Origin: Escherichia coli | GTDB taxonomy: Bacteria > Pseudomonadota > Gammaproteobacteria > Enterobacterales > Enterobacteriaceae | NCBI RefSeq assembly: GCF_011045215.1 | Contig: NZ_CP049201.1 | DNA length: 64,000 nucleotides | Strand: one strand, 5' to 3' | Shown: in pieces, positions 58,280 to 63,910 of the stretch | Numbering within the stretch: the stretch's first letter is position 1 | Layout of the letters: every line of letters begins with the position of its first letter | Notes under the pieces: generated by a model | The model's database searches: none | What the model was told of the DNA's origin: nothing | What the model saw: the letters and a program-made list of their open reading frames with translations, nothing else | Program-made: the position numbers and the translations under genes

Positions 58280-58873
58280 ATGAAACTGATCGTCGGGATG
58301 ACAGGGGCTACCGGTGCGCCTCTTGGTGTGGCATTACTGCAAGCGCTGCGGGAGATGCCGAATGTCGAGACTCATCTGGTGATGTCGAAGTGGGCGAAAA
58401 CCACCATTGAACTGGAAACGCCTTACAGCGCTCGCGATGTTGCTGCCCTCGCAGACTTCTGCCATAACCCGGCGGATCAGGCGGCGACCATCTCCTCAGG
58501 TTCCTTTCGTACCGACGGCATGATCGTTATTCCGTGCAGTATGAAAACGCTCGCCGGTATCCGCGCTGGTTACGCCGATGGCTTGGTAGGGCGCGCGGCG
58601 GACGTCGTGCTCAAAGAAGGCCGCAAACTGGTGCTGGTGCCGCGTGAAATGCCGCTTAGCACCATCCATCTCGAAAATATGCTCGCACTTTCACGCATGG
58701 GCGTGGCGATGGTGCCGCCGATGCCTGCCTTTTATAACCATCCCGAAACGGTAGATGACATTGTCCACCATGTGGTAGCCCGCGTGCTGGATCAATTTGG
58801 CCTCGAACATCCCCACGCCAGGCGCTGGCAAGGATTGCCGCAGGCCCGGAATTTTTCTCAGGAGAATGAATAA
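58280..58873 (+). CDS. ecdB: UbiX-like flavin prenyltransferase
   Basis: 197-aa ORF MKLIVGMTGATGAPLGVALLQAL... (flavoprotein fold, UbiX/Pad1 family). Confidence 0.88.
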   Translation: MKLIVGMTGATGAPLGVALLQALREMPNVETHLVMSKWAKTTIELETPYSARDVAALADFCHNPADQAATISSGSFRTDGMIVIPCSMKTLAGIRAGYADGLVGRAADVVLKEGRKLVLVPREMPLSTIHLENMLALSRMGVAMVPPMPAFYNHPETVDDIVHHVVARVLDQFGLEHPHARRWQGLPQARNFSQENE

Positions 58874-60300
58874 TGGCATTTGATGATTTACGCAGCTTTT
58901 TACAGGCGCTTGATGACCACGGCCAGTTACTGAAAATCAGCGAAGAAATGAACGCTGAACCGGATCTGGCTGCCGCTGCCAACGCCACCGGGCGTATCGG
59001 CGATGGTGCACCGGCGCTGTGGTTTGATAATATTCGCGGCTTTACCGATGCCCGCGTGGCGATGAATACCATCGGTTCCTGGCAGAACCACGCGATTTCC
59101 CTGGGCCTGCCGCCAAACACCCCGGTTAAAAAACAGATTGATGAATTCATCCGCCGCTGGGATAACTTCCCGATTGTCCCGGAACGCCGCGCCAATCCTG
59201 CCTGGGCGCAGAACACCGTCGATGGCGACGAGATTAATTTGTTCGATATCCTGCCACTGTTTCGTTTAAACGATGGCGATGGCGGTTTCTATCTCGACAA
59301 AGCCTGCGTGGTTTCCCGCGATCCGCTCGACCCAGATAACTTCGGCAAGCAGAACGTCGGCATCTACCGCATGGAAGTGAAGGGCAAGCGTAAGCTCGGC
59401 CTGCAACCGGTGCCGATGCACGATATCGCCCTGCATCTGCATAAAGCAGAAGAGCGCGGTGAAGATCTGCCGATTGCGATCACGCTCGGTAACGATCCGA
59501 TCATCACGCTGATGGGGGCCACGCCGCTGAAATACGATCAGTCTGAGTATGAAATGGCAGGCGCGCTGCGTGAAAGCCCGTACCCGATCGCCACCGCCCC
59601 GCTGACCGGTTTTGATGTGCCGTGGGGTTCAGAAGTGATCCTCGAAGGGGTCATCGAAAGCCGTAAGCGCGAAATCGAAGGGCCGTTCGGTGAGTTTACC
59701 GGACACTACTCCGGCGGGCGTAACATGACCGTGGTGCGCATCGATAAAGTCTCTTACCGCACCAGGCCGATTTTCGAATCGCTGTACCTCGGCATGCCGT
59801 GGACCGAAATCGACTACCTGATGGGGCCAGCCACCTGCGTACCGCTATATCAACAACTGAAAGCCGAGTTCCCGGAAGTGCAGGCGGTAAACGCCATGTA
59901 CACCCACGGCCTGCTGGCGATTATCTCCACCAAAAAACGCTACGGCGGCTTTGCCCGCGCGGTGGGCCTGCGCGCGATGACCACGCCGCACGGTCTGGGC
60001 TACGTGAAGATGGTGATTATGGTCGATGAAGACGTTGATCCGTTCAACCTGCCGCAGGTGATGTGGGCGCTCTCCTCGAAAGTGAACCCGGCAGGGGATT
60101 TGGTGCAGTTGCCGAATATGTCCGTGCTGGAACTCGACCCAGGCTCAAGCCCGGCGGGGATCACCGACAAGCTGATTATCGACGCCACCACGCCTGTTGC
60201 CCCGGACAACCGTGGTCACTACAGCCAGCCGGTGGTGGATTTACCGGAAACCAAAGCCTGGGCTGAAAAACTGACCGCTATGCTGGCTGCACGTAAATAA
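58873..60300 (+). CDS. ecdC: UbiD-family (prenyl-FMN-dependent) decarboxylase
   Basis: 475-aa ORF; start overlaps the ecdB stop (taATGg); UbiD-like architecture. Confidence 0.88.
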   Translation: MAFDDLRSFLQALDDHGQLLKISEEMNAEPDLAAAANATGRIGDGAPALWFDNIRGFTDARVAMNTIGSWQNHAISLGLPPNTPVKKQIDEFIRRWDNFPIVPERRANPAWAQNTVDGDEINLFDILPLFRLNDGDGGFYLDKACVVSRDPLDPDNFGKQNVGIYRMEVKGKRKLGLQPVPMHDIALHLHKAEERGEDLPIAITLGNDPIITLMGATPLKYDQSEYEMAGALRESPYPIATAPLTGFDVPWGSEVILEGVIESRKREIEGPFGEFTGHYSGGRNMTVVRIDKVSYRTRPIFESLYLGMPWTEIDYLMGPATCVPLYQQLKAEFPEVQAVNAMYTHGLLAIISTKKRYGGFARAVGLRAMTTPHGLGYVKMVIMVDEDVDPFNLPQVMWALSSKVNPAGDLVQLPNMSVLELDPGSSPAGITDKLIIDATTPVAPDNRGHYSQPVVDLPETKAWAEKLTAMLAARK

Positions 60301-60310
60301 GGAGAAGAAG

Positions 60311-60547
60311 ATGATTTGTCCACGTTGTGCCGATGAACAGATTGAAGTGATGGCGAAATCGCCGGTGAAAGATGTCTGGACGGTATATCAGTGCCAGCAT
60401 TGCCTTTATACCTGGCGCGATACCGAACCGCTACGCCGCACCAGCCGCGAACATTATCCCGAAGCGTTCCGCATGACGCAGAAAGATATTGATGACGCGC
60501 CAATGGTGCCGAGCATCCCGCCGCTGCTGGCGGAAGGTAAGCGCTAA
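60311..60547 (+). CDS. ecdD: small Zn-ribbon subunit of the phenolic-acid decarboxylase-type complex
   Basis: 78-aa ORF with CPRC...CQHC zinc-ribbon pattern; third gene of the operon. Confidence 0.8.
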   Translation: MICPRCADEQIEVMAKSPVKDVWTVYQCQHCLYTWRDTEPLRRTSREHYPEAFRMTQKDIDDAPMVPSIPPLLAEGKR

Positions 60548-60555
60548 TAAAAAGT

Positions 60556-60583
60556 GCCGGGTAGTGGCTTTGCTTTACCCGGC
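60556..60583. terminator. bidirectional terminator between convergent ecdD and pphB
   Basis: gccgggta - 12-nt loop - tacccggc with T-rich flanks on both strands. Confidence 0.65.
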
Positions 60584-60587
60584 CTCA

Positions 60588-61243
60588 TTACTTTATTTTA
60601 TAAAATGACAGCCGCCCGCTGTTCGGCGATCCGGTATCAATATAAATCTGGTTAGCGAACGTCTGAATGTTATCAAACATCATATGTCCAAATATAAAAT
60701 AATCAGCGCCGTTTATTTGTTGTAACTCGCCATTAAGCGATTTCTGCACACGATCAACAGGCCAGAGTAATTCGCTCTCCGCTATTTCTTTACCAAAGAG
60801 ATATTCACTCCCCGGATAATCTGCATGTGCGATGACATATTTTATGTTGTCGTTAGTGATTTAATAATATGTGGAAGGTGATGGAATTTCAGCAACAGAT
60901 CTATTGCCTCTTGTTGCTCTGAATCATTTAAATCGAAAAACCAGTCACCACCGCTGGCAAGCCACATATTTCCATCGCCAGTTTCGAATGCCTCAAGGGC
61001 CATCGCTTCGTGGTTGCCTTTAGCCGATGTAAACCAGGACTGGTTTAACAGGCGCAGCACGTTAAGACTCTCCGGCCCACGATCGATGTTATCGCCTGTG
61101 GAAATAAGTAAGTCGGTTTCAGGGCAAAAAGAGAGTTGATGTAAACGGGATTGTAATAACTGATATTCACCATGAATATCACCAACGACCCATATATGGC
61201 GATAATGATGGGCATTGACTTTTTGATAGCGTGTAGATGGCAT
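60588..61243 (-). pseudogene. pphB: serine/threonine protein phosphatase 2 (PphB/PrpB), frameshifted
   Basis: N-terminal 133 codons (61243 to 60842, GDIHG...GDNIDRG...GNHE) stop at TAA; the C-terminal part (KYVIAHADYPGSEY...FIFGHMMFDN...) continues in another frame to a stop at 60588. The pattern fits a 1-nt loss in an A-run near 60860-60863. Confidence 0.7.
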
Positions 61244-61348
61244 GGTTTTACCCTGTAAAATAAGCTTTCCTATTATACAGGGTATTTTTATTTGATTCGT
61301 CAGCTGTAGATAATATTCCCGATAGTATTTTTCTACCGGGAATTATAA

Positions 61349-63910
61349 TTACACCAGACTCTTCAAGCGATAAATCCACTCCAGCGCCTGACGCGGGGTG
61401 AGTGAATCCGGATCGAGGTTTTCCAGTGCCTCGACCGCAGGCGAAGTTTCTTCCGGTACTGACAGCAAAGACATTTGCGTACCATCCACTTGCGTAGCGG
61501 CGGCGTTCGGCGAAATGCTTTCCAGCTCACGCAGTTTTTGCCGTGCGCGCTTAATAACCTCTTTTGGCACGCCGGCCAGAGCTGCAACCGCCAGGCCGTA
61601 GCTTTTGCTCGCCGCGCCATCCTGCACGCTATGCATAAAGGCAATGGTGTCGCCGTGCTCCAGTGCATCGAGATGCACGTTGGCGACGCCTTCCATTTTC
61701 TCCGGTAACTGGGTCAGCTCAAAATAGTGGGTAGCAAACAGCGTCAATGCCTTAATCTTATTCGCCAGATTTTCCGCGCACGCCCATGCCAGTGACAGAC
61801 CATCGTAAGTGGACGTTCCACGCCCGATCTCATCCATTAACACCAGACTGTATTCGGTGGCGTTATGTAAAATATTGGCGGTTTCAGTCATCTCCACCAT
61901 AAAGGTTGAGCGCCCGGAAGCCAGGTCATCTGCCGCGCCTACGCGGGTAAAGATACGGTCAATCGGTCCAATCTCGACTTTTTGTGCCGGTACATAGCTG
62001 CCGATGTAGGCCATCAGCGCAATCAGTGCGGTCTGGCGCATATAGGTACTTTTACCACCCATGTTCGGACCGGTGATGATCAACATGCGGCGCTGCGGCG
62101 ACAGATTCAGCGGGTTAGCGATAAATGGCTCATTCAGTACTTGTTCAACTACCGGATGGCGACCTTCGGTAATGCGAATGCCCGGTTTATCAATAAAGGT
62201 CGGGCAGGTGTAATTCAGGGTATAGGCCCGTTCCGCCAGGTTCACCAGCACGTCGAGTTCCGCCAGCGCGCTCGCGCTCTGTTGCAACGCTTCCAGATGC
62301 GGCAACAGCAGGTCGAACAACTCTTCATAAAGCTGTTTTTCCAGTGCCAGTGCTTTGCCTTTTGAGGTGAGAACTTTATCTTCGTACTCTTTTAGCTCTG
62401 GAATGATGTAGCGCTCGGCGTTTTTCAGCGTCTGGCGACGCATGTAGTTGATGGGTGCCAGATGGCTTTGCCCACGGCTGATTTGAATGTAGTAGCCGTG
62501 CACCGCATTAAAGCCAACTTTCAGCGTGTCCAGGCCGGTACGTTCACGCTCGCGGACTTCCAGACGCTCCAGATAATCGGTCGCGCCGTCAGCCAGCGCG
62601 CGCCACTCATCCAGCTCTTCGTTATAGCCCGATGCGATAACACCACCGTCGCGTACCAGCACCGGCGGTGCGTCGATGATTGCTCGCTCCAGCAGATCGC
62701 GCAGCTCGGCAAACTCGCCCATCTTCTCACGTAGCGCCTGTACCGGTGCACTATCAACAGGTTCTAACTGCGCACGCAGCTCCGGCAGTTGCTGGAAAGC
62801 GTGACGCATACGGGCCAGATCGCGTGGGCGAGCGGTACGCAACGCCAGACGCGCCAGAATACGTTCCAGGTCGCCAACCTGACGTAGTACCGGCTGTAGC
62901 CCGGCGGTGAAATCCTGCAATGCGCCAATAGTTTGCTGGCGCTCAAGCAACACGCGGGTATCGCGCACTGGCATATGCAGCCAGCGTTTCAGCATACGGC
63001 TGCCCATCGGCGTGACGGTGCAGTCGAGTACAGAAGCCAGCGTGTTTTCCGCACTGCCCGCCAGGTTCTGGGTAATTTCCAGGTTACGACGCGTCGCGGC
63101 ATCCATAATGATGCTGTCCTGCTCACGTTCCATGGTGATGGAACGAATATGCGGCAGAGTCGTACGTTGGGTATCTTTCGCATACTGCAACAGACAACCG
63201 GCAGCACAAAGTCCGCGCGGCGCGTTCTCGACGCCAAAACCGACCAGATCGCGAGTGCCAAATTGTAGATTCAACTGCTGGCGCGCGGTGTCGATTTCAA
63301 ACTCCCACAGCGGGCGACGGCGCAGGCCGCGACGGCCTTCAATTAACGACATTTCAGCAAAATCTTCTGCATACAGCAGTTCCGCAGGATTAGTGCGTTG
63401 CAGTTCTGCCGCCATCGTTTCCCGGTCAGCCGGTTCGCTCAGGCGAAAACGACCGGAACTGATATCCAGCGTCGCGTAGCCGAAACCTTTGCTGTCCTGC
63501 CAGATAGCCGCCAGCAGGTTGTCCTGACGCTCCTGCAACAGGGCTTCATCGCTGATGGTGCCTGGCGTAACGATACGCACAACTTTGCGCTCAACCGGAC
63601 CTTTGCTGGTCGCCGGATCGCCAATTTGTTCGCAGATGGCAACGGACTCGCCCTGATTCACCAGTTTGGCGAGGTAGTTTTCCACCGCATGGTAGGGAAT
63701 CCCCGCCATCGGGATCGGCTCTCCCGCCGAAGCACCGCGTTTGGTCAGTGAAATATCCAGCAGTTGCGATGCGCGTTTTGCGTCGTCATAAAACAGTTCA
63801 TAAAAATCACCCATCCGGTAAAACAGCAGGATCTCGGGATGCTGGGCTTTCAGCTTGAGATACTGCTGCATCATGGGCGTATGGGCGTCGAAATTTTCTA
63901 TTGCACTCAT
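61349..63910 (-). CDS. mutS: DNA mismatch repair protein MutS
   Basis: 853-aa [43 protein letters not shown]...; Walker [10 protein letters not shown]. Confidence 0.97.

Follow-up and report, generated by a model that had tools for sequence, protein, structure and literature searches.

The pphB (prpB) gene encodes protein phosphatase 2, a lambda-phosphatase-like Ser/Thr/Tyr protein phosphatase of the PPP family. The link of PrpA and PrpB to the response that involves protein misfolding, Cpx and htrA reportedly goes back to Missiakas and Raina in 1997 and Shi et al. in 2001. In E. coli K-12, PphB/PrpB (b2734, phosphoprotein phosphatase 2) is encoded immediately downstream of mutS, which is the same locus as that of the gene described here. 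The lambda Ser/Thr phosphatase (1G5B) is a homologous and intact phage enzyme, whose residues His139 and His186 are metal ligands of the dinuclear centre. PphB (PrpB), together with PphA (PrpA), is described as a lambda-phosphatase-like PPP-family enzyme tied to the protein-misfolding, Cpx and htrA response (PMC6610125). The mutS-rpoS region in which pphB lies has been described as a recombinational mosaic (PMC4209514).

We analyzed a stretch of 64,000 nt of E. coli DNA, referred to as the window hereafter, in which pphB is interrupted. Annotated pphB matching the 741-nt region is present in 5,231 of 5,426 complete E. coli genomes, the highest identity being 96.4%, and the alignment to annotated intact E. 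coli pphB at this identity shows one gap only. The parts of the locus are as follows.

60588..61243, minus strand: probable pphB pseudogene, spanning all of the former coding region (656 nt, one fewer than the intact 657)
60842..61243, minus strand: 5′ fragment open reading frame of 133 codons, with 127 native PphB residues followed by KSLTTT and then TAA
60860..60865, minus strand: lesion site, ATT^AAA, with a G absent between 60863 and 60862, in codon 128 (GAA in intact alleles)
60588..60859, minus strand: 3′ remnant, PphB residues 129-218, out of frame with the start

The 133-codon frame reads MPSTRYQK...HHLPHIIKSLTTT*, with the tail ...HLPHIIKSLTTT. An earlier sequence-only reading of this DNA had claimed that the N-terminal 133 codons stop at 60842-60844 on the minus strand, and this frame (61243-60842) was found as described. 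The same reading had the C-terminal half continue in another frame to a stop at 60588. The frame anchored at 60860 bears this out, as it reads ITNDNIKYVIAHADYP...FGHMMF...SFYKIK* (in a longer quotation, ITNDNIKYVIAHADYPGSEY...GRLSFYKIK*) and ends with the stop codon at 60588-60590. The junction that it had quoted, CATATTATTAAATCACTAAC, is present in the window letter for letter. The earliest start codon in the downstream frame is a GTG at 60749, which yields 53 aa only, and the 3′ remnant would remain untranslated as part of the 133-aa product.

Insertion of one base gave a 218-aa protein which scored 466.6 bits over positions 1-218 of 218 against the NCBIfam PphB equivalog NF007425 (PRK09968), a profile of 218 positions with a cutoff of 332 bits. 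The repaired protein scored 234.7 bits against the model of the paralogous PphA, below its cutoff of 326. The 133-aa product as encoded reached 270.9 bits against NF007425, below the cutoff, and covered profile positions 1-128 only. Both halves are PphB, as matches of this strength lie far beyond chance. Since the product as encoded falls below the cutoff while the repaired one exceeds it, the locus is by these scores pphB by descent but does not encode a member of the PphB family. Its place immediately downstream of mutS is the orthologous position of pphB in E. coli. Compared with K-12 PphB, only a few residues of the repaired protein differ (25 of 657 nt), but the window product has 133 aa and not 218, as the G of codon 128 is missing. 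The assignment to pphB and the inactivation by a 1-nt frameshift, both proposed before from the sequence alone, were thus confirmed, the former by the end-to-end score and the mutS-adjacent position and the latter by the single gap and the restoration of 218 aa by one base.

The repaired protein aligned with lambda phosphatase over residues 6-216 against 4-215 (E=2.4e-56). Both conserve GDxHG, GDxxDRG and GNHE, the two C-terminal histidines, and the Glu at the lesion codon. When aligned to 1G5B, the 133-aa frame was found to keep the N-terminal motifs of lambda-phosphatase-like PPP enzymes as GDIHG (21-25), GDNIDRG (50-56) and GNHE (76-79). However, His140 and His187, which align to His139 and His186 of 1G5B, lie downstream of the frameshift and out of frame, so that, unlike the phage enzyme, the window gene does not carry them in the same polypeptide. 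Because these C-terminal metal-ligand histidines and half of the fold are missing, the 133-aa product would be catalytically dead, and no active phosphatase is expected to be made from this locus.

Alignment to intact E. coli pphB revealed exactly one gap in 742 columns. At the lesion, the alleles of K-12, O157:H7 PV15-279, SCU-316 and NCTC10444, which are intact there, read ATTATTGAAATC (PHIIEITNDN), and the alignment sets their ATTATTGAAATCAC against ATTATT-AAATCAC of the window. Since the intact alleles read G at this site, the lost base is the G of GAA and not an A. This is the first base of codon 128 (Glu128), which stands beside an A3 run: ATTATT[G]AAATC. Glu stands at the lesion codon (PHIIEIT) in six additional PphB fragments of other alleles too, and lambda phosphatase likewise has Glu (IIE) at the homologous position. 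The exact 30-mer with G was found in 4,171 of the 5,426 complete E. coli genomes. Neither the exact A4 30-mer nor the deletion 30-mer (CATCACCTTCCACATATTATTAAATCACTA) was found in any of these 5,426 genomes. The ancestral G is deduced from other alleles, while the exact allele was not found intact: both the Glu-repaired and the Lys-repaired 218-aa proteins are absent from a collection of 15 billion proteins.

The comparison with related pphB genes, which had been proposed earlier as a check, thus upheld the 1-nt frameshift and overturned the homopolymer mechanism. The lesion had been explained by loss of one A from an A4 run, with the restored reading ...PHIIKITNDN.... This does not hold, because intact alleles carry G there and the A4 30-mer occurs in no complete genome, and the ancestral reading was ...PHIIEITNDN... 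according to intact alleles and lambda phosphatase. By these alignments, the pphB lesion is best described as a non-homopolymer single-base deletion, ordinary in kind. As for the A4 candidate itself, which we rejected, a 72-nt query restored with A4 reached 98.6% identity at best, with no perfect match.

The genes around pphB in the window, together with one putative RNA element, are listed below.

61349..63910, minus strand: mutS, intact, 853 aa, upstream neighbour (from the open reading frame list and synteny)
60311..60547, plus strand: ecdD, non-oxidative hydroxyarylic acid decarboxylase subunit D, convergent and downstream (from RefSeq synteny and Pfam EcdD_BsdD_detox)
58873-60300, plus strand: ecdC, convergent and downstream of pphB
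60550..60583, minus strand: terminator-like hairpin with a U-run, lying between pphB and ecdD, whose stop codons converge

Beyond ecdC are ecdB, a gene for a MarR-family regulator, rpoS and nlpD. The order mutS-pphB is common to the window, K-12, O157:H7, SCU-316 and NCTC10444. The downstream neighbours differ, as the window has the ecdDCB/marR arrangement of the O157:H7 type whereas K-12 has ygbI-N there. With mutS upstream, ecdD and ecdC downstream and rpoS beyond, the earlier placement of the gene in the polymorphic mutS-rpoS region proved right. The RNA of 60550-60583 had a predicted folding energy of −19.9 kcal/mol (z = −4.6), and none of 200 shuffled sequences folded as well. By this folding model, the hairpin is probably a bidirectional terminator. 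A promoter scan gave three promoter-like sites against 2.4 expected from shuffles, and none of them is claimed here.

The protein collection already contains a truncated product identical to these 133 aa. Three other contigs encode it: GCA_910665095.1, ERR3329057 and SRR11014969, the latter two being Logan assemblies built from raw runs. All three have a junction identical to that of the window. Over 8,362 nt the SRR11014969 contig shows no difference from the window (100% identity), and the two may come from the same isolate. The independent support therefore rests on GCA_910665095.1 and ERR3329057.

GCA_910665095.1 differed from the window by two SNPs in 8,275 nt and five in 4,841 nt. It contains three tyrosine-recombinase genes and small open reading frames upstream of mutS (L003:1-7168), where SRR11014969 has ygbA-hyp directly upstream of mutS. 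In ERR3329057 the island upstream of mutS (L004:800-7222) is a different one again, and encodes an integrase, an ATPase (AAA_15/AAA_21) and a reverse transcriptase of the RVT_1 type. This contig is identical to the window over 60308-63880 (mutS-pphB′-ecdD), but 57 sites differ to the left of 60307, and 33 of 4,840 positions differ further on. Given these SNPs, the differing islands and the breakpoint in ERR3329057 at 60307/60308, GCA_910665095.1 and ERR3329057 are strains distinct from that of the window. The deletion is therefore present in at least three distinct strains, which were sequenced and assembled separately. The same lesion was thus found in independent assemblies of different strains, as expected of an inherited pseudogene. 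No match to the deletion junction pattern was found in JGI metagenome contigs or GTDB representative genomes.

The islands of GCA_910665095.1 and ERR3329057 correspond to DNA beyond the right end of the window, and the one in ERR3329057, with its integrase, reverse transcriptase and ATPase, resembles a defence system. In both island-bearing contigs mutS was called two codons longer (855 against 853 aa). The breakpoint in ERR3329057 is sharp and lies at the ecdC-ecdD junction, from which this contig is about 1.7% divergent leftwards through ecdC, ecdB, marR and rpoS. From this pattern we read 60307/60308 as a recombination breakpoint between strains which have the pseudogene in common. The mutS-pphB-ecdD segment of ERR3329057 may accordingly be common to it and the window by recent recombination and not by clonal descent, although either route needs a real allele.

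No second disabling lesion was found in the window pphB in comparison with intact alleles, and dN/dS against these alleles was 0.15-0.18. This low ratio and the single lesion suggest that the divergence mostly arose under constraint and that the gene lost its G comparatively recently. The window pphB has 17 private positions against K-12, O157:H7 and SCU-316, and all of them fall in CDS nt 25-246 (window 60998-61219). This tract of about 220 nt shows about 7.7% divergence and is absent from K-12, O157 and SCU-316. Elsewhere the gene has no private change except the G deletion, and its remainder is K-12-like. The pattern suggests that recombination brought CDS nt 25-246 in from a divergent source as a short tract, and such a mosaic allele fits the known mosaicism of the mutS-rpoS region (PMC4209514). 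Allele-specific DNA patterns had no match in JGI metagenome contigs or GTDB species-representative genomes. The best identity to the 5,426 complete RefSeq E. coli genomes was 98.7% over window 1-24000 (barA-relA-pyrG), 97.8% over 30001-55000 (the cysJ-cas-cysN region) and 98.9% for mutS. By these identities, the window stems from an E. coli lineage without a closely related complete genome.

Taken together, we consider with a probability of about 0.93 that this is a genuine pphB pseudogene, inherited vertically or by recombination, which arose via the loss of a single G. The alternative already named in the sequence-only reading is a sequencing or assembly error, in a genome which truly has the G, or four As, and an intact pphB. 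Single-base indels are a frequent assembly artefact, a T-run of pphB in the long-read assembly of NCTC10444 is short of one nucleotide, a different change that is possibly such an error, and the complete identity of the SRR11014969 contig to the window could mean that it is only the same isolate once more. However, the base lost here is a G outside any homopolymer, and the junction occurs in three other assemblies from different pipelines and read sets, two of which are of clearly different strains. The same context assembles with G in 4,171 complete genomes and with the deletion in none, therefore no context-specific artefact is at work. An error at this site is thus extremely unlikely, and of the two options, pseudogene or sequencing error, that had been left side by side, the recurrence of the junction in other assemblies, including those of different strains, speaks for the first and against the second.

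A real deletion could still leave a functional gene if programmed recoding, by −1 ribosomal frameshifting or by transcriptional slippage at the AAA, restored a full-length and regulated PphB. The shift needed is indeed −1, there is an AAA at the site, and both halves are otherwise undamaged. But the downstream frame opens at 60860, straight after the TAA created by the junction, so that the two frames overlap by 19 nt only, and this overlap contains no X XXY YYZ heptamer. Homopolymers of five bases or longer are absent from the site, and the A-run of 3 nt is far below what transcriptional slippage requires. The split is also absent from the 5,426 genomes; more than 4,000 genomes encode PphB in a single frame, and there is therefore no conserved recoding. 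We find this explanation scarcely conceivable. It is very doubtful, too, that the 133-aa fragment, possibly with a separate C-terminal piece, keeps or has gained a function and that the allele is under selection. GDxHG, GDxxDRG and GNHE are kept in the fragment, the allele is common to at least three strains and dN/dS is low. The ratio, however, is explained by divergence before the deletion, the private substitutions all being in the imported CDS nt 25-246; the fragment is without two metal ligands and half of the fold, and a C-terminal piece begun at the first start in its frame would have only 53 aa. The breakage of pphB at different places elsewhere fits simple dispensability.

The pseudogene would thus have formed when the G of codon 128 was deleted, which left 127 native residues, shifted the frame and added KSLTTT before a stop. 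The loss of pphB would be evolutionarily recent and would extend over several strains, all from a rare lineage of E. coli. It reflects the dispensability of the gene, which has been broken independently in other E. coli and in Shigella. A stronger reading is that the G deletion was fixed and spread by recombination because this rare lineage benefits from the loss of PphB or from making the N-terminal fragment of 127 residues. An identical mutS-pphB′-ecdD segment does occur in strains that are about 0.7-1.7% different in the flanking DNA, and if the reading were true, the allele would be an adaptive loss of function that moves together with the mutS segment of this mosaic region (mutS-rpoS); we regard this as highly improbable. 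Our preferred reading is that of a pseudogene of an ordinary kind, specific to its lineage and situated in the mosaic region between mutS and rpoS. The appropriate annotation is a frameshifted pphB pseudogene, which should not be "corrected" as a homopolymer error; the locus has little import beyond annotation. As a marker, the G deletion could also help to recognise a rare E. coli lineage to which no complete RefSeq genome is closer than about 98.7%.

Other disrupted alleles of pphB offer the closest comparison. The pphB of NCTC10444 is annotated as "frameshifted" and lacks one T of a T-run at column 171 of the alignment, which could be a long-read homopolymer error; the rpoS of this strain is annotated with an internal stop. 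In strain 98203, pphB is interrupted by an IS1 insertion, and S. flexneri SFJ17B is among further strains whose PphB is truncated in other ways. These alleles are broken at other places, namely by the T-run change at column 171, by a frameshift near codon 107 and by the IS1 insertion; the lesion of the window is at codon 128. The window would add a further case in which the gene of this dispensable phosphatase was inactivated independently, in a region (mutS-rpoS) prone to recombination. In the window as in the other E. coli and Shigella alleles, it is the same gene, within one and the same mosaic region, that small lesions or IS elements have inactivated.
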